From NCBI RefSeq assembly GCF_900101765.1, contig NZ_LT627735.1, positions 2,331,344 to 2,395,343 on the forward strand: a stretch of DNA of 64,000 bases. The letters run 5' to 3'. The position numbers and the translations under genes are program-made. A model generated the notes under the pieces. It had not been told where the DNA came from, searched no databases, and saw only the letters and a list, made by a program, of their open reading frames with translations. Source of the DNA: Nonlabens sp. Hel1_33_55 (GTDB taxonomy: Bacteria > Bacteroidota > Bacteroidia > Flavobacteriales > Flavobacteriaceae). Of the stretch, positions 9,368 through 42,288 are shown piece by piece. The stretch's first letter is position 1. The number at the start of each line of letters is the position of its first letter.

Positions 9368-9369
9368 GT

Positions 9370-26959: not shown

Positions 26960-27859
26960 TTATTCTTCATTGAGTAACTTTTCCATAAAGCCGACAATCA
27001 GCGGCTTTATCAATTCTGGTCGCGCCCACGCTATCTCGTGTCCAGTATCTGGAATAGTTATGATTTCTATATTCTCAAAAACACCTCTCGTATAATTGAC
27101 GTTATCGTAAGGTACGATGTCATCAACATCGCCATGTATGTGAAGCACTGGAACCTTGATTTGATCCCATTCCGCAGCGATCAAATCCAATTCCTTTGAA
27201 TGAACGGTTTTTTCATCGCCTGCGACACGGTAACCAGTGGGAACCAACCAACGCGTCAGCCACCATTGGGTAAATTTTGATTGCCATATATACTTCTCGT
27301 TATTAGGATCAATCGCTGGTGAAATCATGATGACTCCTTTGACACGGCTGTTTTCATAAGCTAATCTAGCTGCTAGTGGTCCGCCATAGGATGAACCAAC
27401 TGCAATCACATTTTCCAACTCGAAATGATCTAATAGACCGCTCATCAATTTGGCTTGTAAATCGATGGAAGTCATTTCCTTTCCAAAATTGGAATATCCA
27501 TAACCTGGTCGATCTACAGCATGTAAGTTGGCATTCGTAACAAAAGTACTATCACTTAAATATCTGTTCCATGCCGAAAGTGAACTGGGCGATCCATGAA
27601 AAAACACAAAGTTGACGGTAGCATTTTGCCTCTTTACACTTTGAATACGAATATTGAGGTCGAGACTATCGATAGCAAAGTAATCAATCTGATTTTGGAT
27701 TTTTTTAGCGCTGAAATGTTCCTGTAATTCAGCATCTGTGGAGCGGTATTGCAGAACGGTGCAGGATTGTAATACAGCAAATGAAATCGCTATAAAAAAA
27801 AAGGTGACCAATCGCCTGATTAGATTAAACGAGATATTTTGGTCTAAAATTTTTATCAC
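26960..27859 (-). CDS. Alpha/beta-fold hydrolase (secreted/lipoprotein)
   Basis: GSSYGG nucleophile elbow, HGDVDDIVP, and a C-terminal histidine in TGHEIAW. Confidence 0.7.
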   Translation of the reverse strand: MIKILDQNISFNLIRRLVTFFFIAISFAVLQSCTVLQYRSTDAELQEHFSAKKIQNQIDYFAIDSLDLNIRIQSVKRQNATVNFVFFHGSPSSLSAWNRYLSDSTFVTNANLHAVDRPGYGYSNFGKEMTSIDLQAKLMSGLLDHFELENVIAVGSSYGGPLAARLAYENSRVKGVIMISPAIDPNNEKYIWQSKFTQWWLTRWLVPTGYRVAGDEKTVHSKELDLIAAEWDQIKVPVLHIHGDVDDIVPYDNVNYTRGVFENIEIITIPDTGHEIAWARPELIKPLIVGFMEKLLNEE

Positions 27860-27885
27860 CTGATTATCAAATTATAAAGTAAAAA

Positions 27886-28644
27886 CTAGCTGGTCAATTT
27901 ACGCAGTTCTTCCATTTGTTGTTGAAGAGCATTCATTTTACTAGAAATATCGTTTGCAATCTCAGGCAAACGACGGTAGAAGACATATCTCGCGCGCCAT
28001 AGTTCTTTAATTTGTGTAAGCTCGAGTGTCACATCCTCTATTTTTTTATGATCTGCTCTCAAGATCAATTTTTTGCCTGTGATGTACATCCTGCGTAATA
28101 TGAATTGATCTGCAGTGATCGCTAGCACCATGGTACCTGCATTTAATTTGGGGATTACTGCAGTAGGAACACGCTCTGATATAACGATGTCCTTGGGAAA
28201 CAAACCTTCATCACGGCTCGTCATTTCTAAACTATCTACTGTGTAAGCAATGAATTCTTTCTCAAGATTGATAGGCAGACTCAATTGAGGCATGTCTTCA
28301 ATAAACTGGTCGTTCTCTCTGTATTGAAGATATTCACTAGCATTATTAGGAGTAATACAGGGCACACAGGCAAATTTTTCTCTTTCTAAATCATCAGGAG
28401 AGATCGTCAGTTCATCATTAAATCTTAGCAATTGATTCACCGTTAATTCTGCAGTGAGCATATGGTCAATAGAAATGCTAAAATAATTAGCAATCATAAT
28501 GATTGTTTCAATTTTTGGTTCACTACGTCCTTCTTCATAAGCGCCTAATGTACCACGCTTTAAATTAAACAAGTCGGCAAATGCTTGCTGTGACAAACCC
28601 TTAACTCCACGTATCTTTTTGATGTTTTTTCCGAAAAAGGACAT
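27886..28644 (-). CDS. XRE-family helix-turn-helix transcriptional regulator with C-terminal domain
   Basis: N-terminal Cro/C1 HTH (IRGVKGLSQQAFADLFNLKRGTLGAYEEG) plus a C-terminal domain of about 180 aa. Divergent from the ybjN-pspA operon. Confidence 0.65.
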   Translation of the reverse strand: MSFFGKNIKKIRGVKGLSQQAFADLFNLKRGTLGAYEEGRSEPKIETIIMIANYFSISIDHMLTAELTVNQLLRFNDELTISPDDLEREKFACVPCITPNNASEYLQYRENDQFIEDMPQLSLPINLEKEFIAYTVDSLEMTSRDEGLFPKDIVISERVPTAVIPKLNAGTMVLAITADQFILRRMYITGKKLILRADHKKIEDVTLELTQIKELWRARYVFYRRLPEIANDISSKMNALQQQMEELRKLTS

Positions 28645-28804
28645 TATTTTGCTAATTTTATTTGCAATTAAAACTTTTTGCTTATATTTACACTAACAAT
28701 ATTAGCAATATCAATTCATAATTGCTAATTTTTTGAACATTAATACCTCTAGTATTTATGATTAACATTCAAATTAGAACGATGCAGTAGGCCGTTGCAG
28801 AGTT

Positions 28805-28820
28805 CGCTTTCGCGAAAGCG
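28805..28820. repeat. 16-bp palindrome (perfect, extended TTCGCTTTCGCGAAAGCGAAA), in the divergent XRE / ybjN-pspA promoter region
   Basis: Exact match; centred between the divergent starts at 28644 and 28942. Confidence 0.95.
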
Positions 28821-28941
28821 AAATAACCATCAACCTTAAAACAACTATTATGACGACGTTTATTCTTCTCTATATTCAGGAATGCTTAACTATTTTCCTG
28901 TGATCACGAAGCAGCTTTTTGTAATATTAAACCTCTAAAAA

Positions 28942-29343
28942 ATGCCAATGGACAATTATTTTAATACCATTAAGGACTTCCTACAAGAACTTAATTTTGA
29001 GATTACCAGAGAAAATCGTGCTGACGGCATTCTTGTCATTGAAAAAGAAAGTGTAGGTGTAAAGAACCTGATATTAGGGATTGCACCTCCTATTTTAATC
29101 ATGGAGCAATATATTTTCAAAATCAATAACAAAAATGAAGAGGTTTTTAAAAGCCTACTTCAAAAAAATAGAGATATCATTCACGGCGCTTTTGTACTGG
29201 ATGAGAGTGGATCTAAAGTCATCTTTAGAGACACCCTGCAAATTGAGAACATCGACTTGAATGAACTAGAAGGTACACTTAATTCCTTAAGCTTGCTTTT
29301 AAGTGAATACTCTGACCACATTATTAAATTTTCTAAATACTAA
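28942..29343 (+). CDS. YbjN-domain protein (putative sensory transduction regulator/chaperone-like)
   Basis: 133 aa acidic alpha/beta protein, commonly paired with PspA in Bacteroidetes. Confidence 0.5.
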   Translation: MPMDNYFNTIKDFLQELNFEITRENRADGILVIEKESVGVKNLILGIAPPILIMEQYIFKINNKNEEVFKSLLQKNRDIIHGAFVLDESGSKVIFRDTLQIENIDLNELEGTLNSLSLLLSEYSDHIIKFSKY

Positions 29344-29355
29344 AAAAACAATATC

Positions 29356-30069
29356 ATGAACATATTCAAACGACTTTTCAAAATAGGACAGGCAGAAGCA
29401 AACGCAGCTGTCAACAACATGGAAGACCCAATCAAAATGACCGAACAAGGAATTCTTGATATGAAGGAAGACCTGAATAAAAGCGTAGAGGCAATGGCTC
29501 AAGTAAAAGCACTAGCTATACGCTCCAAAAATGACAAGGAAGAACATGCTGCTACCGCAAAGGATTATGAGCAAAAGGCTATAATTATTCTAAAGAAAGC
29601 CCATAGTGGCGAGATGGATACTACAGCAGCAGATCGACTTGCTAAAGAAGCGCTAGCCAAAAAAGAGGCAGCACAACTTAATGTAGAGCGTGCCCAGAAG
29701 GAAAGTGAGAAATTTGAGAATAACGTGGCTCAATTGAAGTCAACTATTGACACGATCAAATCTAATATCACCAACTGGGAGAATGAATTAAAGACATTGA
29801 AAGCGCGTGTCAAAGTAAGCGATGCAACCAAAAATGTCAATAAACAAATGGCAGAACTTGACAGCACTGGCACTGTGAGCATGCTTGAGCGTATGAAGGA
29901 AAAGGTAGCTCAAGACGAAGCACTTGCTGAAGCCTACAGCGACATGGCTGGATCAAGAACAAGTGTTGATGACGAAATCGACGCTGCGGCAGACACCAAA
30001 CAAGCTAAAGTGGATGACGACCTTGCCAAATTAAAAGCACAATTGGGCATCAAGAAGGATGAAGCATAA
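29356..30069 (+). CDS. pspA: PspA/IM30 family protein (phage shock protein A homolog)
   Basis: MNIFKRLFKIGQAEANAAVNNMEDPIKMTEQGILDM matches the PspA N-terminus (MGIFSRF...NALLDKAEDPQKL). It is a 237-aa coiled-coil protein. Confidence 0.8.
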   Translation: MNIFKRLFKIGQAEANAAVNNMEDPIKMTEQGILDMKEDLNKSVEAMAQVKALAIRSKNDKEEHAATAKDYEQKAIIILKKAHSGEMDTTAADRLAKEALAKKEAAQLNVERAQKESEKFENNVAQLKSTIDTIKSNITNWENELKTLKARVKVSDATKNVNKQMAELDSTGTVSMLERMKEKVAQDEALAEAYSDMAGSRTSVDDEIDAAADTKQAKVDDDLAKLKAQLGIKKDEA

Positions 30070-30139
30070 AATGCTTTTGAAGGGATTGGCAACAATGTCA
30101 GTCTAAGCGTGTAAAAACCTAACCATTAACAACCAACCA

Positions 30140-30853
30140 TTGGAAAACTATTTCAACATTCTATTTTCTGAAGTCAACATCACGCTTACCGTGCTGCTGC
30201 TCATCCTTATTGTTTATTGGATTTTTACCATGATCAGCGGTATTGATTTTGACCTGGATGTAGATGTGGACATCGATGTTGATGTGGATGCAGACCTAGA
30301 CATGGATTTTGACAGCATTGAAGGTGGCAACCTTGATTTTGAAGATGTTGCCAATGCAGAAGTGGATCGCGAGCACGTGGTCAACAAACGAACTCGACAG
30401 CTCAAATGGTGGCAAATCATATTGATTTACTTCAATTTTGTGGGTTTGCCGTTCATGTTCACCTTCACGTTTTGGATTTTCTTATGGTGGCTCATGAGCG
30501 TTTTAACAACAGCAGTAACAGGAAGCTATGATAATGTTTTTGGCTTCATTATCGTGCTGGCAGCTCTCATTCCAGCGCTATTTGTGACAAAAATCGTAAC
30601 CACACCATTTAAAGCGTTTTTCAAAAACTTGAATAAAGATGGCGACAAGGCAGTAGACTTTCTAGGCCGCAGCGCTATCTTGATGTCCTCCATTTCAGGA
30701 GATAAGTTGGGCAATGCAGAAGTGCTTGCCGATGGAAATCCCATGAGTATTTACGTCAAGTCGTTGGATGGATCAGAATTACGCTTTCGTGAAAGCGTGC
30801 TCATCATCAAGCAATCGGACGATAAAAATTATTTTTTAGTGAGTAAGGCGTAA
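30140..30853 (+). CDS. NfeD-like (YqiJ/DUF1449) membrane protein with C-terminal OB-fold
   Basis: N-terminal TM segment, an acidic DVDVDID repeat, further TM segments, and a C-terminal beta-barrel (GRSAILMSSISGDKLGNAEVLADGNPMSIYVKS). It sits immediately upstream of the flotillin gene, as in yqiJ-yqiK. Confidence 0.6.
   Translation: MENYFNILFSEVNITLTVLLLILIVYWIFTMISGIDFDLDVDVDIDVDVDADLDMDFDSIEGGNLDFEDVANAEVDREHVVNKRTRQLKWWQIILIYFNFVGLPFMFTFTFWIFLWWLMSVLTTAVTGSYDNVFGFIIVLAALIPALFVTKIVTTPFKAFFKNLNKDGDKAVDFLGRSAILMSSISGDKLGNAEVLADGNPMSIYVKSLDGSELRFRESVLIIKQSDDKNYFLVSKA
30782..30797. repeat. 16-bp palindrome, 15/16 copy in the NfeD CDS (RFRES)
   Basis: CGCTTTCGTGAAAGCG. Confidence 0.8.
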
Positions 30854-30861
30854 TCCATAAA

Positions 30862-30888
30862 GATGTCAGTCTGAGCTTGTCGAAGACG
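30862..30888 (+). repeat. Solo arm of the MITE-like repeat family (GATGTCAGTCTGAGCTTGTCGAAGACG)
   Basis: Exact family consensus, directly after the NfeD stop codon. Confidence 0.7.
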
Positions 30889-30964
30889 TGTCACTAAATA
30901 AAAAGATTAATAAATAATAACAACCGCAGAAACCATTCTGCACAACCATTAATAAAACCAAACT

Positions 30965-33037
30965 ATGGACGGAATTTTAGGAATTATTGTAACAGGACTG
31001 GGAATTCTCCTTTTCCTAGTCATCGTTTACTTCGCGATCATCGCGATGTTTTACAAAAAAGTACATCAAGGACAGGCGCTGGTGCGTACTGGTTTTGGAG
31101 GTACTAAAGTCGCGACAGACAAAGGTTTGTATGTAGTGCCGGTTTTCCACCGTGTGGAGACCATGGATATTTCAGTTAAGAAAATCCAGATTGAGCGTAT
31201 GGGCGTGGAAGGATTGATATGTAAGGATAACATGCGAGCCGATATCAAAGTAGCCTTTTTTGTACGCGTTAATAATGAGGTTGAATACATCAAGAAAGTA
31301 GCACAGACTATAGGTGTGCAGCGCGCTTCTCGCATTGAAACGCTAGAAGATCTTTTTGAAGCCAAATTCTCTGAAGCGCTCAAAACTGTAGGTAAGAAAT
31401 TCCAATTCATTGATTTGTACGAGGCTCGTCGGGAATTTCGCGATGAGATTGTGGATATCATTGGAACAGACTTGAATGGTTACACGCTGGAAGACTGTGC
31501 GATTGACTTTCTAGAGCAAACAAGTGTTGAATTTTTAAAGAAAGACAACATTCTGGATGCAGAAGGTATCAAGAAGATTACCGAATTGACCGCTGCGCAA
31601 AATATCAAGGCCAACTTGATCACTCGTGATGAAGAAAAAACAATTCGCAAGCAAGATGTTGAGGCTCGGGAAGCAATTCTCGAACTGGACAAACAACTCG
31701 CCGAAAAAGAAGAGCAACAAAAACGTGAGATTGCTAACATCAAATCTCGCGAAGACGCAGAAACTCTCAAAGTCGCCGAAGAAGAAAGACTCAAGTCTGA
31801 AACGGCACGCATAGCAACTGAGGAAAAAGTGAAAGTTGCCGAAGAAAACATGCAACGTCAGATTATTGTTGCAGAGAAAAACAAGCAACGTACCGATGCT
31901 GTAGAAACAGAACGCGTAGAAAAAGATCGACTATTAGAAGCAACAGAACGGGAAAGAGTCGTGACTCTGGCACAAATCGAGAAAGAGAAAGTAGTTGAAG
32001 TTGAGAAAAAGAACATCCAGGATGTCATTAGAGATCGCGTGGTTCTTGAAAAAGGAGTAGTTCAGGAGCAGGAAAACATGAAAGACATTGAAGCTTTCAA
32101 ATCTGCCGATCGTGCTAAACAAGTAGCCATTACAAATGCTGAGGCAAAAGCACAAGACGACTTGATCCGTATCACAATTGCTGCAGAGGCCTCTAAACAA
32201 GCAGCTGTTCAAAAAGCAGAGGAAATCAATATCGAAGCTCTTGCTCATAAAGAAGCCAGTGAAAAAGAAGCTGATGCACGTAAAATTCTTGCAGAAGCTA
32301 CCGCTAAAGAAGAAGCAACCGTTGGTTTATCTGAAGCACAAGTAATGCATGCAAAAGCTGAGGCTAGTGAACGTCAAGGAATTGTTGACGCACTGATCAT
32401 CCAGAAAAAAGCTGAAGCAGAGGCAAGCGGAATCACCGCAAAAGCGGCTGCAAAACGTCAAGATGGACTTGCTGAAGCCGAGGTTATCAAAGAAAAAGCC
32501 CTTGCAGATGCTGCTGGAATTGAAGAGAAAGCCAATGCGATGAAGAAACTCGATGGTGTAGGTAAAGATCACGAAGAGTTCAAACTACGTCTGGACAAAG
32601 AACTTCAAGTAGACCTGGCGCAAATCAACATCCAGAAAGATATTGCAGATGCACAAGCACAAGTGATAGGAGATGCATTGAGAGCGGCTAAGATTGATAT
32701 CGTTGGTGGTGAGACCATGTTCTTTGAACAAATCATCGGTCAGATCACTAAAGCCAAAGGTTATGATAGACTCGTGAATCATTCAGAAACGGTTACTGAA
32801 GTAAAAGATGCGATTCTAGGAAGTGGTGACGTGAAAGGGAATTTGCTTGATAAAGTCAAGGACTTTGCAGACCGCTACAACATCAGTTCTGAAGACATTA
32901 AAAACCTAACGATTGCCAATCTATTGATTGATTTACAGGCAAGAGTTGACAATAATGAAGACCAGAACATCTTGACCAACCTTATGAATCTGGCTAAAGG
33001 AATGGGGTTGTCCAATAAGAAGTTGGGTAATATCTAG
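30965..33037 (+). CDS. Flotillin-family SPFH-domain protein (YqiK-like)
   Basis: N-terminal TM segment, an SPFH/band-7 domain (QALVRTGFGGTKV...KVAFFVRV) and a long EA-rich coiled coil; 690 aa. Confidence 0.8.
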   Translation: MDGILGIIVTGLGILLFLVIVYFAIIAMFYKKVHQGQALVRTGFGGTKVATDKGLYVVPVFHRVETMDISVKKIQIERMGVEGLICKDNMRADIKVAFFVRVNNEVEYIKKVAQTIGVQRASRIETLEDLFEAKFSEALKTVGKKFQFIDLYEARREFRDEIVDIIGTDLNGYTLEDCAIDFLEQTSVEFLKKDNILDAEGIKKITELTAAQNIKANLITRDEEKTIRKQDVEAREAILELDKQLAEKEEQQKREIANIKSREDAETLKVAEEERLKSETARIATEEKVKVAEENMQRQIIVAEKNKQRTDAVETERVEKDRLLEATERERVVTLAQIEKEKVVEVEKKNIQDVIRDRVVLEKGVVQEQENMKDIEAFKSADRAKQVAITNAEAKAQDDLIRITIAAEASKQAAVQKAEEINIEALAHKEASEKEADARKILAEATAKEEATVGLSEAQVMHAKAEASERQGIVDALIIQKKAEAEASGITAKAAAKRQDGLAEAEVIKEKALADAAGIEEKANAMKKLDGVGKDHEEFKLRLDKELQVDLAQINIQKDIADAQAQVIGDALRAAKIDIVGGETMFFEQIIGQITKAKGYDRLVNHSETVTEVKDAILGSGDVKGNLLDKVKDFADRYNISSEDIKNLTIANLLIDLQARVDNNEDQNILTNLMNLAKGMGLSNKKLGNI

Positions 33038-33174
33038 GTTGATTTCTAGGGCGCTACACGGTTCTTTCTTTAGAAAGAATCGTGTCGGGCTATCCGCTAT
33101 ATCTTTTAAGCCTTATAGCCTTAAAAGGATACCGCTGCTATCCCTAGCGCGAGAAGCCAAAATATAATATTGAC

Positions 33175-33199
33175 TGTCAGTCTGAGCTTGTCGAAGACG
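33175..33199 (+). repeat. Solo arm of the MITE-like repeat family, upstream flank of the GIY-YIG gene
   Basis: TGTCAGTCTGAGCTTGTCGAAGACG. Confidence 0.7.
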
Positions 33200-33223
33200 G
33201 AATCATTAATCACTAAACCATCT

Positions 33224-33544
33224 ATGAAATTCTATTTTGTCTACATCTTAAAATGCAGCGATGATAGTTTTTACGCAGGTTTTACTTCTAATCTTGACCA
33301 AAGACTTGCAGAACATCAAATGGGTAAATCCGCTGGATATACATCTAAAAGATTACCCTTAGAATTGGTCTGGTTTGAGCAGTTTTTGGATTATCCAGAA
33401 CAAGCAATTCAATGGGAAAAGCGAATCAAAGGCTGGTCAAGGAGAAAGAAACAGGCATTAATCGATGGAAATTGGGACAATTTGATTTTGTTTTCAAAAA
33501 ACTACGCTGAGTATGGAAATAAGATTAAAAGAGTTGAAGATTGA
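33224..33544 (+). CDS. GIY-YIG nuclease family protein (YhbQ/UPF0213-like)
   Basis: FYFVYILKCSDDSFYAGFTSNLDQRLAEHQMG is a GIY-YIG motif. The protein is about 106 aa and is flanked on both sides by repeat-family copies. Confidence 0.7.
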   Translation: MKFYFVYILKCSDDSFYAGFTSNLDQRLAEHQMGKSAGYTSKRLPLELVWFEQFLDYPEQAIQWEKRIKGWSRRKKQALIDGNWDNLILFSKNYAEYGNKIKRVED

Positions 33545-33556
33545 TTCAAATTGAAT

Positions 33557-33660
33557 TGTCAGTCTGAGCTACACCTGTGCTGAGTTTATCGAAGTATCGA
33601 AGACGTTGTAGAAACTAATAAAGATGGTGCAGTCGCACTTCGACAAGCTCAGTGTGACAC
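33557..33660. repeat. Complete MITE-like element (inverted arm pair, left arm with internal duplication)
   Basis: Left arm TGTCAGTCTGAGC[TACACCTGTGCTGAGTTTATCGAAGTA]TCGAAGACG. Right arm GTCGCACTTCGACAAGCTCAGTGTGACAC is the reverse complement of the left arm. Confidence 0.7.
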
Positions 33661-33691
33661 AAACATTGAAAAATGAATATTGATACAACGA

Positions 33692-33775
33692 GATGTCAGT
33701 CTGAGCTTGTCGAAGACGATATAGGGACTAACAAAGCTTTTTAGAAGTCGCACTTCGACAGGCTCAGTGTGACAC
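33692..33775. repeat. Complete MITE-like element (inverted arm pair)
   Basis: GATGTCAGTCTGAGCTTGTCGAAGACG ... GTCGCACTTCGACAGGCTCAGTGTGACAC; 84 bp hairpin-forming. Confidence 0.7.
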
Positions 33776-33805
33776 GAGCATATAAAAAAGAGAAATGAAA
33801 TCGCA

Positions 33806-33831
33806 ATGTCAGTCTGAGCCTGTCGAAGACG
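33806..33831 (+). repeat. Solo arm of the MITE-like repeat family
   Basis: ATGTCAGTCTGAGCCTGTCGAAGACG, about 30 bp upstream of the giant ORF start. Confidence 0.7.
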
Positions 33832-33862
33832 ATTCGAACCAATAAAACTAACTACCATTTCA

Positions 33863-36800
33863 ATGGCAGATAAAGAACTAAAAGACACCACACAACTGGA
33901 CTCTGGAACTTACGAGATCATCCAGAGTCGATTGCTCAAGCAAAAAAATGACTTGCAGCAACGACTCCATGCGCTCAACGAAGAGCGCAAGAAAGTCTTC
34001 GGCTCGCTGGAAACTAGGTTGATTGCAAACGACCGTGTGAATACAGAGAATAACTGTATCGCTCGTGATATTGTGACCATCGGCAAGAACAGCATCTTTG
34101 GTTATAACGTGCACTTTGGATTACGTACAGAGATCAATCTGAGTGATGTTTTTAGTATTTATGAATTTGATCGGGAAGGGAAAGATGGTGATGCATTACG
34201 CTTTCGCGACCTGCCTGCCGGCAGGCAGGAAGCTGGGTCAAGTTTAGAACTCATTGAAGACCCAATCTTTCAAACCGACTTTGAAAATCTTTACAAGTAC
34301 TATCGCAATACCATTTTTTCCAAGTTTGCGATCATAGGGAATTACCTGCACATGGTTTTCCAGCTGAGTGATTCAGTGACGGATATCAAGACCTTTAAGT
34401 GGTTGATAAAAGAAAACGAATTGCAGTATGTGGACAACCGCAGTGAACACGAGTACCGTTTCCCAGCGCAATATGGATTTCAATGGAAAGAAGCTGGACG
34501 TGATAACCAGCGTGCAGGAAAGCACGGCCATGTATCGATTTTAGACAAAGTTTTTGTAGAAACTATAGGTGGTGATTTAACCATTAAAGTAGAAGATAAT
34601 ACAGACGATGGTCAAGGAATCTATCGGGAAGATGTAGAGCACCGCGACCAGACACTCGATGATGGTCAATACCGATATGCAGATTTAGGGAACCTCATCG
34701 TTCTAGAAATCAAACCATTTCAAGAAGAACCGCGTCATTTTGTGTACAACCACAAGATCAAGGAAGTAGAAAAAATTGACAGTATTGCTCAAGCTGCAGT
34801 GCTGTTACCAGACGAGCAAGGAATCATTTTCCCTAGCGGTTATTACTTGCAAACTGGTGAGTACAACGTGTTTCCAAGCGATGCTGGAAAACTAAAATTT
34901 CAGCAAAAAATTGCCTCGCCTAATGGTGAAGATCATTTATACGTTTTCTATAATGCTGCACAAGGATTGTACGTTCTCATGTCGTACAACGTGATTGATC
35001 AATCGGTAAAGACACCTATCGTTTGTAATGGATTTACAATTTTGGAACAAGGTGAGCTGTGCTACTTCCGTAATGGAGATGAGCAGACGAAGCACCACAT
35101 GATGCAAATATGGCAAACCCCTTATTTGAAAGGTGATATTGTACCGTCAGAGCATCAAGATACCATGCTCTATAAAATAGGTAACAAGGACATTGTAAAA
35201 GCAATGGCCGAAGCAAACGAGCTACTGACTCTTTTAAATAAAGAAGACAGCTACGGCGGTTTATATGATGATATCGCTCGTGCCTCAAAAGATATCCTAG
35301 ACGCATACTATTGGCTGCCAGAAGAGGAAACCAAGCAGATCAATCTGCCTCTTGGCGAAATCAACAAAGCATCTAATGCTGCGATTGACGAGTTTGAGAA
35401 AGTCAAGCAAATGCGCAAACAAGCAGCTGCAGAGACTAAGGATATTTCTAAAAAGGCTGAGACGCTATTCAGCAAAATAAAAAGCACGTCGTTCAAATCT
35501 ATTAATGATTTTGTAGAGCTGTTAACTCAACTGCGCAGTTTGCGTGGTGAAGCGATAGGTTTGTATGAAATACGTTATGTAGATACCGATTTCATAAAAG
35601 GAATCGAGGATCAAATCGTGGAGCAAAACGAAGTGATTTCTCGTCGTGCGGTTACCTTTTTGTTAGATGATAAGGCTCTAGCACCTTATCATGAGGCTGT
35701 TGCCGAAAAGCAAAAAGCTCTCGATGCTACTAAAAAGGTTATCGAGATTAAAAACCTTGAAAAGGAGGTCAATCAGATTGCAGAAGATCTGGAGTTACTA
35801 ATAGAAATCGTTTCTAATCTGGATATTGAGGACACGTCGCATTCCACTAAAATTATTGAGAACATCTCCTTGATATTTGCGACCATCAATCAGGTAAAAG
35901 CGGCGATTAAAAACAAGGTGAAAATTGTAGGTAAAAAAGAAGCTCAAGCCGATTTTGCCGCACAGCTGAAGTTGATTGATCAGAGCATTATCAATTACCT
36001 AGACATTGCCAACACGCCAGAAAAGTGTGATGAATTCTTAACTAAAATCTCCATACAGCTAGAAGAGCTAGAAGGAAAGTTTGCGGATTATGATGAGTAC
36101 ATCACAGAAATTATTGCCAAGCGTGAAGAAGTGTATGCCGCTTTTGATAATCGCAAAAGCAGTCTGATAGAAGCGCGTAATAAAAAGGCAATATCCTACC
36201 AAAACGCTGCAGAACGTATTATCAAAGGGGTTCAAAAAAGAGCACAATCACTGGATAGCGCGACAGAAATCAACGGCTATTTTGCCAGTGATTTAATGAT
36301 TAATAAAGTGCGAGACATCATCGCACAATTAAAAGATCTGGAGGACGCTGGAAAAGCCGAAGCCATTGAAACAGCCCTCAAAGTAGCTCGAGAAGATGCC
36401 TTGAGAAAACTCAAGGATAAGAACGAGCTTTATGAGGATGGTGATAACATCATCAAGCTGGGCAAGCATAAATTTGGCGTTAATAAACAACAGCTGGACT
36501 TAACCATAGTCTTCAAGGATAATGCGCTGTTTTATCATCTTACAGGGACCGATTTCTATCAGGAATTACACAATGAGATCCTGACGCAATCCAAAGGAAT
36601 CTGGAATCAAGAATTGGTTTCAGAAAACTCTGAAGTCTATCGGGCGGCTTATCTCGCCTACTCTATCTTTAAAACTGGAGACAAAGAAGCTTTGAGAATG
36701 ATGAGTCCTACAGATTTGCTATTGCGCGTGCAGGAAATAGCGAGCGGCAACTATTCTGGCGGTTATGTGAAAGGTGTTCACGATCACGACACAGCACAGA

Positions 36801-38875
36801 TTTTAAGCGTTTTATTACACAAACATCATGATCTAGGCTTGCTCACATATGATCCAAACACGAGAGCAAAAGCGCAGTTTTTTTGGAACAGTTTAGAGCA
36901 GTCGCAACGTTCCAACCTCAACCGTATTTTAAAAAGTGCTGGCGAGGTGTTATCTGTTTTTCCAGATAGTAAAGAGTATGATTTTATTGTGGAGGAATTG
37001 GCTGATGAGATTTTTAAAGCCAATAGTGCAAACAAGACCGACTTCGACAAGCTCAGTCTGACAAAGGAAAAAACACCAAGCGATGTCACGTTGAGCCTGT
37101 CGAAACGGAGTTTAGATTCTATAAAGCATAATTCCAACTCGACTGCTGGAAACGAACACCAAATCGCTGAATATCTATTCAATGAACTAAAAGACAACGA
37201 TCATTTTACTGTAAGTACGAGTGCTATTCAGTTAAAGGAAGCTTTTGAGAAAAAAATAAAATCTCAAAATGCCGATTTGAAATTCAAGAAAAGTCTAGAA
37301 GCCTGTGAGGACGAGAAGTCTAAAGTAGAACTGGTGAGACATTGGGTTTCTGCTTTCGCGAAAGCGGAATCAAAACAAGCTTTATTGCCCTATACAAACG
37401 AATGTGTTGCTAACATCCTCTACGGAAAACTGACTGCCGATAAAACGGTAGCAATATCGCCTGTGGAAACAATTACAGGATTAAAAGGATCGCATGGAAC
37501 GATCAACGAAAGTGAATTTGTATTCAATTACCACGAGTTTGTGAACGTTTTGGAGCATTTTACTACTGTAAAAGTGCCAGCTTATGAAACCTTTAGAAAA
37601 GCAAAACATCAAGTAACTGAAGAGTTAAAAGAATCGTTGCGATTGGAAGAATTCAAGCCACGAGTGCTAAGCTCATTTGTGCGTAACAAATTGATCGACC
37701 AAGTATATTTCCCATTGATAGGCGATAATCTGGCCAAACAATTAGGAACCGTAGGCGATACGAAACGTACCGACCGAATGGGATTGTTGCTCTTGATATC
37801 ACCACCAGGTTATGGTAAAACCACCTTGATGGAATACATGGCTAACCGGTTGGGCTTGATTTTTATGAAAATCAACGGTCCAGCTATAGGTCACGATATT
37901 ACCTCTGTAGATCCAGAAGCTGCTTCTAATGCGGCAACTCGTGAAGAACTCAAAAAGCTGAATCTTGCTTTTGAAATGGGTGATAACGTGATGTTATATC
38001 TGGATGATATCCAGCACTGTAATCCCGAGTTTTTACAAAAGTTCATCAGTCTGTCTGATGGAACACGTAAGATTGAAGGAGTTTATAATGGCAAGCCTAA
38101 AACCTATGATCTACGTAGTAAGAAATTCTGCGTGATCATGGCTGGTAATCCTTATACAGAAAGCGGAGATAAATTCCAGATTCCAGACATGCTTGCCAAC
38201 CGTGCAGATATTTATAATCTTGGAGATATCATAGGCGATACGGCTCATTTGTTTGAACTAAGTCTGGTTGAAAATGCATTAACGAGCAATCCAGTATTAC
38301 AACAGTTAAGTAACAAGCACTTTGATGATGTATATGCCTTAATCGATCGAGTTCAAAATGGCGCCAGCGATAACGAACTCAAAGGAAACCACAGCAACCA
38401 AGAAATAGCCGACTATGTCGCTGTCCTAGAAAAGGTATTGAAGATACGGGATACGGTTCTTAAAGTAAATGAAGCGTACATCGCCAGCGCAGGAATGGAA
38501 GATGCTTATCGTACGGAGCCTTCTTTCAAACTACAAGGTTCTTATCGTGATATGAATAAACTGGTCGCTAAAGTTGTTCCTATCATGGATGATAAAGAGT
38601 TACAAACTCTCCTATCATCACACTATGAAAGTGAATCACAAACCTTAACCAGCGCTGCAGAAGCAAACTTGTTGAAATACAAAGAACTGGTAAGCACCAT
38701 AAAACCAAAAGAGCAAGAACGATGGACAGCCATCAAAGAAATTTTTGCAAAAAATAACAAGCTGAACGGTCTAGGTGGGCAAAATCAAATGTCTCAAGTA
38801 TTGAATCAGATGATGGATTTTACTGAAAATCTAGAGGGAATAAAAGAGGTGTTGAAGAAAGGGTTAGCTAAGTAA
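33863..38875 (+). CDS. Giant multidomain protein (1670 aa) with C-terminal AAA+ ATPase module (MoxR/AAA_5-like)
   Basis: Continuous ORF. Walker A LLLLISPPGYGKTTL, Walker B VMLYLDDIQHCNPE, sensor-1 FCVIMAGNPYT and arginine ANRADIYNL at about aa 1300-1450. The N-terminal 1250 aa comprise a coiled coil, a beta-rich region and long helical arrays. It contains an in-frame copy of the repeat family at 37041-37107. Confidence 0.6.
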   Translation: MADKELKDTTQLDSGTYEIIQSRLLKQKNDLQQRLHALNEERKKVFGSLETRLIANDRVNTENNCIARDIVTIGKNSIFGYNVHFGLRTEINLSDVFSIYEFDREGKDGDALRFRDLPAGRQEAGSSLELIEDPIFQTDFENLYKYYRNTIFSKFAIIGNYLHMVFQLSDSVTDIKTFKWLIKENELQYVDNRSEHEYRFPAQYGFQWKEAGRDNQRAGKHGHVSILDKVFVETIGGDLTIKVEDNTDDGQGIYREDVEHRDQTLDDGQYRYADLGNLIVLEIKPFQEEPRHFVYNHKIKEVEKIDSIAQAAVLLPDEQGIIFPSGYYLQTGEYNVFPSDAGKLKFQQKIASPNGEDHLYVFYNAAQGLYVLMSYNVIDQSVKTPIVCNGFTILEQGELCYFRNGDEQTKHHMMQIWQTPYLKGDIVPSEHQDTMLYKIGNKDIVKAMAEANELLTLLNKEDSYGGLYDDIARASKDILDAYYWLPEEETKQINLPLGEINKASNAAIDEFEKVKQMRKQAAAETKDISKKAETLFSKIKSTSFKSINDFVELLTQLRSLRGEAIGLYEIRYVDTDFIKGIEDQIVEQNEVISRRAVTFLLDDKALAPYHEAVAEKQKALDATKKVIEIKNLEKEVNQIAEDLELLIEIVSNLDIEDTSHSTKIIENISLIFATINQVKAAIKNKVKIVGKKEAQADFAAQLKLIDQSIINYLDIANTPEKCDEFLTKISIQLEELEGKFADYDEYITEIIAKREEVYAAFDNRKSSLIEARNKKAISYQNAAERIIKGVQKRAQSLDSATEINGYFASDLMINKVRDIIAQLKDLEDAGKAEAIETALKVAREDALRKLKDKNELYEDGDNIIKLGKHKFGVNKQQLDLTIVFKDNALFYHLTGTDFYQELHNEILTQSKGIWNQELVSENSEVYRAAYLAYSIFKTGDKEALRMMSPTDLLLRVQEIASGNYSGGYVKGVHDHDTAQILSVLLHKHHDLGLLTYDPNTRAKAQFFWNSLEQSQRSNLNRILKSAGEVLSVFPDSKEYDFIVEELADEIFKANSANKTDFDKLSLTKEKTPSDVTLSLSKRSLDSIKHNSNSTAGNEHQIAEYLFNELKDNDHFTVSTSAIQLKEAFEKKIKSQNADLKFKKSLEACEDEKSKVELVRHWVSAFAKAESKQALLPYTNECVANILYGKLTADKTVAISPVETITGLKGSHGTINESEFVFNYHEFVNVLEHFTTVKVPAYETFRKAKHQVTEELKESLRLEEFKPRVLSSFVRNKLIDQVYFPLIGDNLAKQLGTVGDTKRTDRMGLLLLISPPGYGKTTLMEYMANRLGLIFMKINGPAIGHDITSVDPEAASNAATREELKKLNLAFEMGDNVMLYLDDIQHCNPEFLQKFISLSDGTRKIEGVYNGKPKTYDLRSKKFCVIMAGNPYTESGDKFQIPDMLANRADIYNLGDIIGDTAHLFELSLVENALTSNPVLQQLSNKHFDDVYALIDRVQNGASDNELKGNHSNQEIADYVAVLEKVLKIRDTVLKVNEAYIASAGMEDAYRTEPSFKLQGSYRDMNKLVAKVVPIMDDKELQTLLSSHYESESQTLTSAAEANLLKYKELVSTIKPKEQERWTAIKEIFAKNNKLNGLGGQNQMSQVLNQMMDFTENLEGIKEVLKKGLAK
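37041..37107. repeat. MITE-like element (arm pair in opposite arrangement) embedded in-frame in the giant ORF
   Basis: CTTCGACAAGCTCAGTCTGACA ... GATGTCACGTTGAGCCTGTCGAAACGG; translated as ...DFDKLSLTKEKTPSDVTLSLSKRS... Confidence 0.65.
37351..37366. repeat. 16-bp palindrome, 15/16 copy in the giant ORF (AFAKA)
   Basis: TGCTTTCGCGAAAGCG. Confidence 0.8.
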
Positions 38876-38913
38876 ATATTGGTCTAATTTGATCATTATC
38901 ACTTTAGAAATTA

Positions 38914-38953
38914 AAAAAGCCATCACAATTCAGTTGTGATGGCTTTTTCTTTT
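38914..38953 (+). terminator. Rho-independent terminator after the giant gene
   Basis: AAAAGCCATCACAA-TTCAG-TTGTGATGGCTTTTTCTTTT. Confidence 0.7.
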
Positions 38954-39234
38954 ATATCCTCTATACATCTTAAAGAGACTCAATCGCCTTAGTCGCTTTT
39001 TTTATACTCGCTTCTTTAGATTGACTAGTAAGATCAGCGGCAATAATTTTGACATCGTTAGTTATTTAAGAGCCGAGAAAAAGGCTTCACATAACAAGCT
39101 ATTAATCAACATTACTTCCAACTGACGCGCACTTATAAAATATACGCAATCAATTAAACAAGCGATCATCAAATCATTTTCACAATTTTTTAGCCTTGTC
39201 TAAAAAAAGATTTATACAAACCAAATTAATATTT

Positions 39235-39242
39235 TACCTTTG
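39235..39242 (+). promoter_or_regulatory. Candidate -7 promoter box TAccTTTG (leaderless dtxR-family transcript)
   Basis: Matches TAnnTTTG and ends 5 bp before the ATG at 39247, which would give a leaderless mRNA. Confidence 0.3.
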
Positions 39243-39246
39243 TCGT

Positions 39247-39903
39247 ATGCATTCAGTATCAGAGGAAAACTATATTAAGGCCATCTATCATCTTCAAAAA
39301 GGAACTGCGCTAGTTTCTACTAATGAGATTGCTGGAGAAATGAATACTAAGGCTTCCTCGGTTACGGATATGCTTAAAAGGCTGGCAGATAAAAATCTAG
39401 CAGAATACATTCCTTATAAAGGCTCGCGACTCACAAAGAGCGGCATCGATTGTGCCAACCAGATCGTTAGAAAGCATCGGCTTTGGGAGGTTTTTCTGGT
39501 AGAAAAGCTAGATTTCACTTGGGATGAGGTTCATGATGTGGCAGAACAGCTGGAACATATCCAGTCTCGCAAACTCATTGATGAACTGGATAAGCACTTG
39601 GGCTTTCCCAGAAAGGATCCGCATGGCGATCCTATTCCTGACCGAGATGGGAATTATGAAGAGGTCCAACAAATCCAATTATCAAAACTTACCAAGGGTG
39701 ATCAGGGAACCATCACTGGCGTTATCGATACGTCCAGTAGTTTTTTAAAATATTTGGATAAGCACCAGATAGAGTTGGGCAGTCATATCGAGGTCTTGGA
39801 ACGTGAAGAATTTGACGGGTCCTTCGTTATTAAAACCGATTATAAAACTCTACACATTTCACAGGCGATCGCAAACAATATTTATTTAAACTCCCAATCA
39901 TGA
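39247..39903 (+). CDS. DtxR/MntR-family metal-dependent transcriptional regulator with FeoA-like C-terminal domain
   Basis: The N-terminus MHSVSEENYIKAIYHL...SSVTDMLKRLADKNL is a DtxR HTH, followed by a metal-binding/dimerisation domain and a C-terminal SH3-like domain. Confidence 0.75.
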   Translation: MHSVSEENYIKAIYHLQKGTALVSTNEIAGEMNTKASSVTDMLKRLADKNLAEYIPYKGSRLTKSGIDCANQIVRKHRLWEVFLVEKLDFTWDEVHDVAEQLEHIQSRKLIDELDKHLGFPRKDPHGDPIPDRDGNYEEVQQIQLSKLTKGDQGTITGVIDTSSSFLKYLDKHQIELGSHIEVLEREEFDGSFVIKTDYKTLHISQAIANNIYLNSQS

Positions 39904-40640
39904 AAAAGTGGGCGTATTTCATGATGACTAGCTTTACGGCCTCAGGTTTTGCGCAAGAACTCATAGAGCCTGCGACAACCATGAATACTGGTGAATTTCA
40001 AGCACAGATTGCTGTGATCTATACAGAAAATAGTGAGTTCCGCTTTCGCGAAAGCGTACTAACCTACAACAATACCCTACTACTTTATGGCATTTTTCCT
40101 CATATGGAATTGCGTCTGGGAATTGATGTCAACTCCTCAGAAACCACGGATGGCGGCGCTAGGATAGGTGATAGAACTAGCGGTACAACGCCTTTACAGA
40201 TAGGTGCTAAATATCGCTTTTTCCAGCAGACTGAATCCACTCCGGAGATATCAGTCATGAGTCACGTATTTCTGCCACTTACGGCTAGTTCTGACAACAA
40301 ACCAAACTATACTGGATATGATCTCTGGGTTCTAGGATTACATCAAATCAACGATCAACATGCCGTCCGTGTTAATATAGGAGCGGCTACTGGTGGAGAT
40401 TCAAGAGGTATTTTGCCATTATATATTCTGGCCCACAACTGGCTACCCTTTGGGAAATGGGGTTTGAATACTGAAGTATATGGCGAATTTCCATCAAATG
40501 AATCATCCAAACATTTCTTTGACGTTGGTATTAGCTACTTTTTTAGACCTACGGTTCAGCTAGACCTCAACGCTGGTCGTGGCATCAACAATAACCAATC
40601 GATTCTCGCCAGCATGAGACTCACTTATACTATTATTTGA
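39900..40640 (+). CDS. Outer membrane beta-barrel protein (putative metal-uptake porin), first gene of the metal ABC operon
   Basis: Signal peptide, alternating beta-strand pattern and C-terminal aromatic residues. The ATGA overlap with the dtxR stop suggests translational coupling. Confidence 0.4.
   Translation: MKKWAYFMMTSFTASGFAQELIEPATTMNTGEFQAQIAVIYTENSEFRFRESVLTYNNTLLLYGIFPHMELRLGIDVNSSETTDGGARIGDRTSGTTPLQIGAKYRFFQQTESTPEISVMSHVFLPLTASSDNKPNYTGYDLWVLGLHQINDQHAVRVNIGAATGGDSRGILPLYILAHNWLPFGKWGLNTEVYGEFPSNESSKHFFDVGISYFFRPTVQLDLNAGRGINNNQSILASMRLTYTII
40041..40056. repeat. 16-bp palindrome (perfect), in the OM barrel CDS (RFRES)
   Basis: Exact match. Confidence 0.95.
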
Positions 40641-41551
40641 ATATGAAACATGGAATTTTAATTATCATAACCTTAATACTAGTATCCTGTGGTGGTCCCA
40701 AGGCAAGTGATGGAAAGTTACAAGTTGTTACCACAACAACCATGATTACTGATATGGTCAAAAACATAGGCGGCGACAAAATTGATGTCCAAGGATTGAT
40801 GGGTAGCGGCGTCGATCCACACTTATATAAGGCAAGTGAAGGTGATGTATCTAAGCTCTTCAACGCAGACCTCATCATTTATAACGGGCTGCATCTAGAA
40901 GGAAAATTGGTCGAAGTGTTCGAAAAAATGAATGCGCAGGGAAAAAACACATTGGCGATTAGTGATGCGCTTGATAAAAGCACGTTGATAGGTAGCGAGT
41001 ATTTTGCCAGTAGCTACGATCCGCATATTTGGTTTGATGTAGATTACTGGAAGTCAATGACAATCTATATTACCCAACAATTGTCAGACCTAGACCCAGA
41101 AAATGCGGAAACCTATAAAGCCAACAACGATGCCTACTTAGCAACTATTGATCAATTGGAAAATGATCTCAAAGCAACCATAGAGCAATTACCAGCAGAG
41201 AAGAGAATCCTTGTAACCGCCCATGATGCATTTAATTACTTTGGTAGAAAATTTGGTTTTGAGGTGGTTGGATTACAAGGACTTTCTACAGCAACCGAAG
41301 CTGGTGTGCAAGATGTCCAGCGCATTACTCAATTCATTATCGATAATCAAGTCAAAGCCGTTTTTATAGAAAGTAGCGTACCGCGACGTACGGTTGAAGC
41401 ATTGCAGGCAGCGGTACGTGCCCAAAGTCAAGAGGTACAAATAGGTGGAGAGTTATATAGCGATGCCTTAGGAAGTGCTGGCACACCTGAAGGCACCTAC
41501 GTTGGAATGTATCGCCATAACGTAGAAACCATAGTTAACGCACTGAAATAA
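40637..41551 (+). CDS. Metal (Mn/Zn) ABC transporter substrate-binding protein, TroA/ZnuA family
   Basis: Lipoprotein signal (LVSCGG); cluster-9 SBP motifs ([22 protein letters not shown] ... PHIWFD). Confidence 0.8.
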
Positions 41552-42288
41552 TGGAAGAAAAGATAGCAGTAGCGGTAGATGATTTAACGGTAGCCTACAA
41601 TTATAAGCCTGTGTTATGGGACATAGATTTATCCATCCCAGAAGGCGTTCTTATGGCCATCGTTGGTCCGAATGGTGCAGGAAAATCGACGCTGATAAAA
41701 TCCATTTTGGGAATCATTGATCCTATTGCTGGGTCTGTGGCAATTTATGGGAAACCCTATAGCAAACAACGCGATAAAGTAGCCTACGTACCACAAAAAG
41801 GTAGCGTGGATTGGGATTTCCCTACGACAGCGCTGGATGTGGTAATGATGGGAACTTATGGCTCTCTGGGCTGGATCAAGCGCCCAGGTGCCAAAGAAAA
41901 AAAACAGGCGCTGGAAGCATTGGAAAAAGTTGGAATGCTGGCATTTAAAAGTAGACAAATCAGCCAATTGAGTGGTGGACAGCAACAGCGTATTTTCCTT
42001 GCCAGAGCATTAGTGCAGAACGCTGCGATCTATTTCATGGACGAACCTTTCCAAGGTGTGGATGCAACCACTGAAATCGCCATTATCAACATCCTCAAAG
42101 AATTACGTAAGGCAGGAAAAACGGTCATCGTCGTACATCATGATTTACAGACCGTTCCGGAATATTTTGACTGGGTGACTTTTTTAAATGTAAAACACAT
42201 TGCTACGGGACCAGTGAAAGATATTTTCAACGATGATAACCTGACTAAAACTTATGGTATTAATTATAAAGTAGCAGTGCAGCAATAA
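41551..42288 (+). CDS. Metal ABC transporter ATP-binding protein
   Basis: Walker [10 protein letters not shown], signature LSGGQQQR, Walker [13 protein letters not shown]. Confidence 0.85.

Follow-up and report, generated by a model that had tools for sequence, protein, structure and literature searches.

The CesT/Tir–PspA and band-7–AAA+ operon of Nonlabens sp. Hel1_33_55: a conserved two-module locus with a putative SPFH/NfeD-partnered ATPase

The closest described relatives of the locus considered here form an operon class that Ravi et al. defined in 2024 (mSystems, PMC11237479). In this class, a CesT/Tir–PspA dyad is joined by three more genes, encoding a band-7/flotillin protein, a three-transmembrane protein prototyped by YqiJ/YuaF, and an ATPase combining a beta-propeller, coiled coils and an AAA+ module. 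The same work reported that shortened band-7/YqiJ(/AAA+) operons are spread more widely than the full form, and suggested ATP-dependent membrane remodelling for the PspA–AAA+ associations. We analysed a stretch of 64,000 nucleotides from Nonlabens sp. Hel1_33_55 (hereafter, the window), in which positions 27886–38875, judged by their sequence, hold the orthologue of this conserved, envelope-associated operon. Gene content and gene order are alike: a CesT/Tir-like gene is adjacent to pspA, a YqiJ-type gene precedes a gene for a transmembrane, band-7 and coiled-coil protein, and the last gene codes for a giant ATPase with the features described by Ravi et al., as judged from AlphaFold2 (AF2) models, Foldseek and Pfam AAA/AAA_5 matches. 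The divergent regulator is shared as well, since the opposite strand encodes a protein with a helix-turn-helix (HTH_3) domain and weak S24/LexA, that is, protease-like, matches. Table S3 of PMC11237479 lists a Dokdonia donghaensis representative, ANH61663.1, with the very layout of the window, including a divergent “cHTH+Protease” regulator, and the giant proteins of Dokdonia and the window are 69% identical. Our operon is a rediscovery of this published, computationally defined class and adds no new concept to it; the opinion of a first-pass annotation of the window that the architecture was not a described system was wrong, the text and Table S3 of Ravi et al. both giving it. That description is purely computational, and our literature search found no experimental work on the system.

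What we add is a quantified split of the operon into two modules, the assignment of the AAA+ module to the MoxR/dynein type with an invariant DD in its Walker B motif, and the recognition that small selfish genes have landed repeatedly in the spacer between the SPFH and ATPase genes. It is an open question how bacteria, having no Vps4-type motor, build and recycle their ESCRT-III-like polymers (PspA, Vipp1) and their SPFH cages (PMC7619361), and the operon places a very large, highly conserved AAA+ protein beside both PspA and an SPFH protein. As it is present in genetically tractable Bacteroidota, it offers a good experimental entry point. The explanation that we find best, and towards which we lean slightly, is a two-module operon whose giant ATPase would be a partner of the SPFH/NfeD pair, acting through the mechanism proposed below.

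Conservation of the gene neighbourhood

A locus scan in which every GTDB species was represented by a single genome, and an alignment of varied members of the giant family served as the query, yielded 80 loci from Bacteroidota, Planctomycetota, Verrucomicrobiota/Kiritimatiellota, Desulfobacterota and Clostridia (five or six phyla), and neighbouring genes were found by running iterated profiles, seeded from the window proteins, on the open reading frames (ORFs) of the loci. YqiJ-like and SPFH genes lie directly upstream of the giant gene, on the same strand, in 63 of the 66 loci with at least 3.6 kb of upstream sequence, a count that, like the others given here, is conditional on the giant gene, because all 80 loci were picked by this protein. 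The spacer from the SPFH to the giant gene has a median length of 138 nt, and in two Clostridia loci the genes even overlap by 11 nt, the SPFH stop lying over the start of the giant gene. PspA stands beside the giant gene in 36 of 65 loci, none of them outside Bacteroidota. The genes for the XRE regulator, the CesT-like protein and PspA co-occur without exception (34/34): of the 44 Bacteroidota loci, 34 have all three, as against none of the 21 loci outside this phylum. In two further Bacteroidota loci, PspA is found without the XRE and CesT-like genes, in one of them downstream on the other strand. No further conserved neighbour family was found in the 80 loci, where we saw only shadow ORFs of known genes. 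Flanking genes vary between genera, while the block itself is kept.

Hence, the cluster is composed of two fused modules, [XRE / CesT–PspA] and [YqiJ–SPFH–giant ATPase]. The former (module A: XRE/S24-like regulator, CesT-like protein and PspA) is limited to Bacteroidota among the sampled loci. The latter (module B: YqiJ-like protein, SPFH protein and giant ATPase) occurs in Bacteroidota, Planctomycetota, Verrucomicrobiota/Kiritimatiellota, Desulfobacterota and Clostridia. Given the two linkage frequencies, 63/66 for SPFH/YqiJ and 36/65 for PspA, the giant ATPase is first of all tied to SPFH/NfeD and not to PspA. The first-pass annotation had proposed a single co-directional cluster with a divergent XRE regulator and had counted the giant gene in. 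All of the ORFs are where it placed them, and the order and strand of the genes are kept in dozens of genomes, far beyond chance. We asked whether relatives lack the giant gene at this place, and the gene proved to be present, so that its membership holds; what had to be corrected is the partner, which is the SPFH/NfeD pair rather than specifically PspA.

The same conservation bears on the name under which the giant protein is filed. At 50% identity, its family falls into 908 clusters (E up to 1e-3), mostly with proteins of 1,600–2,000 aa, and most homologues are called “DNA repair ATPase” after the description of Pfam DUF3686. Taken at its word, this name, carried by the Pfam entry and by NCBI records, would make the giant gene an independent repair gene that merely happens to lie downstream of a membrane operon, and MCM and RuvB are indeed among the Foldseek matches of the protein. 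However, adjacency to SPFH/YqiJ is kept across phyla, down to the overlap of stop and start in Clostridia, no nucleic-acid-binding domain was detected with Pfam, and a literature search for DUF3686 returned no mention of it. We consider this reading very improbable. As far as gene context and domain content go, the name is without support, and the annotation of the approximately 900 clusters should be corrected.

Could the block be a conflict system? Mobile and defence elements often carry regulators of the XRE/S24-like kind, the HTH of the window regulator matches PADLOC control proteins, the block sits in differing genomic contexts between genera, small selfish genes accumulate in it, and an identity of 45–50% between giant proteins of different phyla, over some 1,600 aa, hints at horizontal spread. 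Such evidence might suggest an XRE-controlled, membrane-acting anti-phage or abortive-infection cassette. Nevertheless, PADLOC 2.0 models match none of the five structural proteins beyond noise (noise-level matches concern PspA and the P-loop), and neither NCBIfam nor PADLOC yielded anything for the remaining four structural proteins once PspA is set aside. The proteins are also highly conserved and not fast-evolving, with 66–90% identity across Flavobacteriia, the selfish genes inserted in the block are mutually unrelated, and the flanks of the operon in the window, an alpha/beta hydrolase and a DtxR-like repressor, are housekeeping genes. A defence role therefore seems to us quite improbable.

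The giant ATPase and its SPFH partner

The giant gene (33863–38875, plus strand) codes for 1670 aa, in which Pfam recognises DUF3686 at residues 30–483 (E 5e-180), DUF7902 at 604–687 and AAA/AAA_5 at 1309–1432. A database protein of Nonlabens sp. Hel1_33_55 is 100% identical to it. Hydropathy analysis revealed no hydrophobic segment, and the protein is predicted to be soluble and cytoplasmic. AF2 models were built from 46-sequence alignments, residues 1–870 and 861–1670 being modelled separately. The first model (predicted local distance difference test, pLDDT, 85.5) shows a helix at 16–46, a beta-rich domain at 52–418 (nt 34016–35116) and approximately 420 residues of long helices at 435–856 (nt 35165–36430). 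The second (pLDDT 87.5) shows a small beta domain and a helical middle region at 861–1250, followed by an AAA+ core with its lid at 1250–1670 (nt 37610–38872). In Foldseek searches, the beta-rich domain matched many propellers of the 7-bladed type (the DCAF1 WDR domain, Elp1, IFT-A, Vps18 and the clathrin N-terminal domain) at 7–11% identity, and according to the model it is a beta-propeller. The closest matches of the AAA+ module were the MoxR remodellers CbbQ and NorQ, then dynein and midasin; the modelled fold is of the MoxR/dynein type, and the MoxR/AAA_5-like C-terminus named by the first-pass annotation is borne out by both the AAA_5 profile and the MoxR-like fold. The Walker A motif GYGKT (1316–1320), the sensor-1 residue N1429 and R1447 are invariant across 27–46 diverse sequences. 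When profiles of the two halves of the protein were searched against the PDB, only matches of P-loop length and one coiled-coil artefact (TEX12) came up.

A “protocoatomer-like” combination of propeller and helices, recalling the Foldseek matches to IFT-A, clathrin, Vps18 and nucleoporins, was considered and rejected: at 7–11% identity these are generic propellers, and the helices, 48–58 residues long, look more like coiled coil than solenoid. Some variation within the family is also worth recording. Homologues from Planctomycetota, Kiritimatiellota, Verrucomicrobiota and Desulfobacterota (loci L021, L034, L036, L053, L058, L071 and L072) have C-terminal extensions reaching 124–345 residues past the Bacteroidota ends. 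In Dysgonomonas capnocytophagoides (L065) and a Rubripirellula metagenome-assembled genome (L070), two or three ORFs take the place of a single giant gene, which may reflect pseudogenisation or an assembly error.

Immediately upstream in module B, the SPFH/Band-7 protein (30965–33037, plus strand; 690 aa) matches Band_7 at residues 32–176 (E 2.3e-13). It begins with a transmembrane segment (hydrophobic residues ~1–34), continues through the SPFH domain into approximately 350 aa of E/A/K-rich helical or coiled-coil sequence, and ends with a C-terminal domain. A PDB search with this protein gave no flotillin match, and a profile of its orthologues reached the Escherichia coli QmcA cage protein (8z5g) only weakly (E 0.0076). 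By analogy of architecture, and by its pairing with a YqiJ-type gene, the protein may be called flotillin-like. An outright flotillin assignment, as made in the first-pass annotation, is upheld with respect to the SPFH domain, the membrane anchor and the YqiJ-type pairing, but not by any match to Pfam Flot or to a solved flotillin.

What might such an ATPase do? Its best fold matches being MoxR remodellers, one could suppose that the giant protein matures a membrane complex within an SPFH microdomain, or inserts a cofactor into it, in the manner of CbbQ–CbbO, NorQ–NorD or RavA–ViaA, its target then being neither the SPFH scaffold nor PspA. The segments LYLDDIQHCNPEFLQKF and AGNPYTESG..IPDMLANR display the MoxR/AAA_5 pattern. 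However, Pfam detected no VWA/MIDAS partner among the operon proteins, and no conserved candidate client gene was found near the giant gene in the 80 loci, which makes client maturation an unlikely explanation in our view.

Another reading starts from PspA, which has the ESCRT-III fold. Here, the giant AAA+ protein would be the motor that disassembles or remodels PspA polymers, as Vps4 does for ESCRT-III, and SPFH/NfeD would serve only as a membrane platform. PspA and the ATPase do share one operon in 34 of 44 Bacteroidota loci, so that an AAA+ protein is encoded beside an ESCRT-III-fold protein there; a Vps4-type partner is regarded as missing in bacteria (PMC7619361), and the remodelling suggested by Ravi et al. 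(PMC11237479) for PspA–AAA+ associations points the same way. On the other hand, in all 21 loci from outside Bacteroidota, and in 8 from within it, the ATPase is linked to SPFH/YqiJ while no PspA gene lies beside it. It has no MIT domain, a beta-propeller occupying its N-terminus instead, and its post-beta-2 loop (NGPAIGHD) is devoid of the aromatic pore-loop residue. Overall, the analogy with Vps4 and ESCRT-III, put forward in the first-pass annotation, is weakened, as the window ATPase belongs to a different AAA+ clade, lacks the MIT domain and tracks SPFH rather than PspA; we would give this reading only a small chance.

We therefore return to the SPFH/NfeD-partnered ATPase as the preferred explanation, for which we propose the following scenario. 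The SPFH protein and its NfeD-like partner would form a large cage or microdomain at the cytoplasmic face of the inner membrane. The giant protein would oligomerise through its AAA+ ring, while its helical arms and propellers would dock on the SPFH assembly, so that ATP binding or hydrolysis could drive the assembly, remodelling or recycling of the SPFH scaffold or of clients within it. In Bacteroidota, the CesT-like chaperone would hold or deliver PspA, which would be recruited to the same stressed patches and seal the membrane there, and the XRE protein would repress the entire unit for as long as no envelope signal is received. It is tempting to go one step further and to suppose that the giant ATPase is an ATP-driven remodeller of SPFH cages and, in Bacteroidota, of PspA polymers too, that is, a non-homologous counterpart of Vps4. 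We judge this extension, drawn from gene linkage, rather doubtful. If true, it would be of high interest, because the giant ATPase would then represent the missing ATP-driven remodeller of both bacterial SPFH cages and PspA polymers.

A number of points weigh against the scenario that we prefer. The mechanism is inferred from linkage, sequence and models, and the linkage counts carry the conditionality stated above; three loci (L032, L046 and L072) carry the giant gene without SPFH/YqiJ genes nearby. The formation of a cage would be an extrapolation from other SPFH families; Band_7 was reached by only 5 of 23 orthologues of the window SPFH protein and Pfam Flot was matched by 0 of 23. Another point concerns the ATPase itself. 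The Walker B motif of MoxR proteins normally ends in DE, while in the giant protein it reads LYLDD (1378–1382), with DD in place of the canonical hhhhDE, and D1381 and D1382 are invariant among both 27 and 46 sequences from several phyla. The longer stretch LYLDDIQH (1378–1385, nt ~37994–38017) resembles the DnaA-type “LLIDDIQF”. Such a motif may point to a slow or switch-like enzyme and not to a motor. Finally, the strong hairpins of the repeats in the SPFH–giant spacer, described in the next section, could attenuate read-through to the giant gene in this particular strain.

Other operon proteins, the regulator and the insertions

The protein that we refer to as YqiJ/YuaF-type, or NfeD2-like (30140–30853, plus strand; 237 aa), comprises a transmembrane segment, an acidic DxDxDxD tract, two more hydrophobic segments and a C-terminal beta-rich domain. 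The window copy has no Pfam match, YqiJ_N, YqiJ_OB and NfeD included, while YqiJ_N was found in 11 and NfeD in 1 of its 33 orthologues. The NfeD/YqiJ label of the first-pass annotation thus stands on the orthologues and not on the window protein itself; we regard the call as reasonable, though indirect for this copy. In two other Nonlabens, a 69-aa Zn_ribbon_13 gene lies between pspA and the YqiJ-like gene (L083, 3028–3237; L084, 2001–2210). The corresponding spacer of the window (30070–30139) is only 70 nt long, contains a degenerate copy of the repeat discussed below and has no Zn-ribbon gene. In N. dokdonensis, in turn, the operon additionally contains a small Band_7 gene and two further small ORFs.

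Two genes precede the YqiJ-like gene in the window. PspA/IM30 (29356–30069, plus strand) has the ESCRT-III fold and matches PF04012 almost over its full length (E 1e-41; 143.4 bits against a cut-off of 33.9; model positions 1–217 of 220, residues 2–229), which bears out the initial call. It is neither an equivalog of E. coli PspA (TIGR02977, 58.6 bits against a cut-off of 243) nor of Bacillus subtilis LiaH (34 against a cut-off of 380). Its N-terminus, MNIFKRLFKIGQAEANAAV, looks like an amphipathic helix. A MIM-like motif at its C-terminus was discarded, as it lies within the stretch matched by PspA_IM30 and fits the MIM1 consensus only approximately. The gene 12 nt upstream of pspA (28942–29343, plus strand) had been described as coding for a YbjN-domain protein; gene and position are right, but the label is the weaker of two, the protein being a small CesT/Tir-like chaperone of the YbjN clan (PF22550 CesT_Tir_1, E 2e-58, versus E 3.8e-05 for YbjN). 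It is the presumed partner of PspA, the CesT/Tir–PspA dyad having been described already (PMC11237479).

The divergent regulator (27886–28644, minus strand) consists of an XRE-type HTH at residues 5–64 (HTH_3, E 9.6e-11), an S24/LexA-like beta domain and a C-terminal helix. Matches of its C-terminal half to Peptidase_S24 (0.0082), LexA (0.0029) and also UmuD all remain below the cut-off. In most orthologues, the putative GDSM position reads “LEM”, according to an alignment read by eye in which no LexA/S24 reference was included. If this reading is right, the S24-like domain is for that reason probably non-catalytic, a non-cleaving sensor or oligomerisation domain. Between the regulator and the CesT-like gene lies a divergent promoter/operator spacer (28645–28941) with TTGCTAA at 28649 and 28722 and TTAGCAA at 28702. 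These heptamers are contained in the most widely shared 8-mers of the XRE–CesT spacers, of which TTAGCAAA/TTTGCTAA is the most frequent (17 of 34 loci), and ATTAGCAA occurs 26 times in 15 loci. We propose TTGCTAA/TTAGCAA as a candidate operator. We also looked in these spacers for a palindromic operator that is conserved, and found none: the window spacer does hold a perfect 20-nt palindrome, TTCGCTTTCGCGAAAGCGAA, at 28803–28822, but none of the 33 orthologous spacers has it, and it is private to the window.

The spacer between the SPFH and giant genes is crowded in this strain. Just past the SPFH stop there is a Flavo-1 RNA motif (33079–33162, minus strand; RF01705, 56 bits against a gathering threshold of 42, E 3e-10), the sole Rfam match in the window. 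At the corresponding place, 9 related loci, three other Nonlabens among them, have no such motif, which rules it out as a conserved part of the operon. It is followed by a gene for a small stand-alone GIY-YIG nuclease (33224–33544, plus strand, within the ORF 33170–33544; PF01541, E 3.7e-17). Because the first 18 codons of the ORF are translated repeat, the true start is probably the ATG at 33224. Then comes a repeat array (33548–33833) of about 2.5 hairpin units of ~113 nt, each built on a 22-nt inverted repeat, TGTCAGTCTGAGCTTGTCGAAG / CTTCGACAAGCTCAGTGTGACA; as RNA, the region folds with z = -4.5. Further copies of the 22-nt repeat are located at 30864–30887 (the YqiJ/SPFH junction) and 33175–33198, with a degenerate one at ~30096–30118 (the PspA/YqiJ junction). 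Within the window, the repeat is confined to the operon, where it marks almost every gene junction.

One hairpin unit has even entered the giant ORF in frame (37043–37141, plus strand), where its 99 nt are read as 33 aa, residues 1061–1093, with the sequence “FDKLSLTKEKTPSDVTLSLSKRSLDSIKHNSNS” and with repeat arms at 37042–37063 and ~37085–37105. This insert was not found in 8 aligned orthologues. Nowhere else in the interior of the AF2 model does pLDDT fall below 50 (model residues 201–235). The insert is modelled as a disordered loop in a poorly conserved linker, and it would be, in effect, an element resembling a miniature inverted-repeat transposable element tolerated inside a coding sequence.

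The same repeats together with a homologous GIY-YIG gene occupy the same slot in Leeuwenhoekiella (L004; repeats at 9255–9376 and 9809–9842) and Nonlabens ulvanivorans (L083; 3241–3317 and 6350–6883), and in a Tenacibaculum locus (L002) the slot holds a GIY-YIG gene but not the exact repeat. GIY-YIG is absent from another Nonlabens (L003) and from Echinicola (L001), the SPFH–giant spacers of which measure 70 nt and ~100 nt, respectively. This distribution suggests a mobile GIY-YIG/hairpin element with either a preference for the SPFH–giant site or a long residence in it. More generally, the spacer reaches at least 450 nt in 24 of 71 loci (including L002, L005, L007, L017, L022, L025, L031, L035, L037, L039, L044, L056, L059, L065, L067 and L076) and then holds mutually unrelated small genes, GIY-YIG among them; the others we labelled by eye as an IS200/RAYT-like Y1 transposase (L017, L056, L059), a DUF559-like endonuclease (L035, L039), a GxxExxY-type protein (L067), lipoproteins and others. 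The site thus takes up small genes of a selfish or accessory kind time and again.

Is the operon interrupted at this point? No terminator-like site was found on the plus strand between the SPFH and giant genes. An intrinsic terminator-like hairpin with a 16-bp stem and a T run follows the giant gene (38914–38948, plus strand), and it is the longest plus-strand stem of this kind in 27800–39300 (16 pairs, compared with two 6-pair sites in coding sequence). Since no such terminator lies inside the spacer and the dominant one comes after the giant gene, the Flavo-1/GIY-YIG/repeat block is a recent, lineage-specific selfish insertion into a permissive spacer and not a functional boundary. Just after the terminator, positions 39196–42288 (plus strand) encode a DtxR/MntR-like iron-dependent repressor with a FeoA domain and three co-directional ORFs; in other genera, their synteny with the operon is not kept.

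Comparison with known systems

Several better-known systems share parts of this organisation. The MoxR remodellers CbbQ, NorQ and RavA are proteins of approximately 300 aa that work with a VWA partner. In the window, by contrast, the AAA+ core makes up the C-terminal quarter of 1,670 aa, its Walker B is DD, and no VWA gene is nearby.

Module B without its ATPase recalls E. coli yqiJK and B. subtilis yuaFG (floT), in which an NfeD-like multi-transmembrane gene stands directly before a gene for a transmembrane–SPFH–coiled-coil protein; the pairing of NfeD2 with SPFH2 is the defining operon of the SPFH2/NfeD2 group (Hinderhofer et al. 2009, PMC2636767). Unlike the window, these operons contain neither the giant ATPase nor PspA and the CesT-like gene, and the window SPFH protein is too divergent for Pfam Flot. 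The parallel with B. subtilis pspA–ydjGHI (samGHI) and its SPFH protein YdjI, drawn in the first-pass annotation, has a real basis in the literature: according to PMC8581546 and a preprint (bioRxiv 10.64898/2026.02.06.704340), PspA is encoded together with an SPFH protein that links it to the membrane. That SPFH protein, however, is described as cytosolic and as recruited by the membrane proteins SamG–SamH. The remaining partners also differ, YdjG having a Zn-ribbon/NTF2 and YdjH a TPM domain (according to the text of PMC11237479), and an NfeD-like gene, an AAA+ protein and an XRE regulator are all missing from that operon.

The nearest functional precedent is provided by SPFH cages operating with AAA+ machines, namely HflK/C, QmcA (YbbK) and prohibitins with FtsH or m-AAA (PMC2636767), where an SPFH oligomer is combined with a ring ATPase, as we suppose for the window. 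The comparison is one of analogy only, FtsH being a membrane-anchored AAA protease of the classical clade, while the window ATPase is predicted to be soluble, is of MoxR type, lacks any protease domain and is equipped with a propeller and long helices.

Closest of all remains the operon of Ravi et al. (PMC11237479), and the wider spread that these authors reported for the abbreviated band-7/YqiJ/AAA+ operons matches our own locus counts. To their class, the window copy adds Flavo-1, the GIY-YIG gene, the hairpin repeats and the 33-aa in-frame insert; in everything essential, the two are the same.

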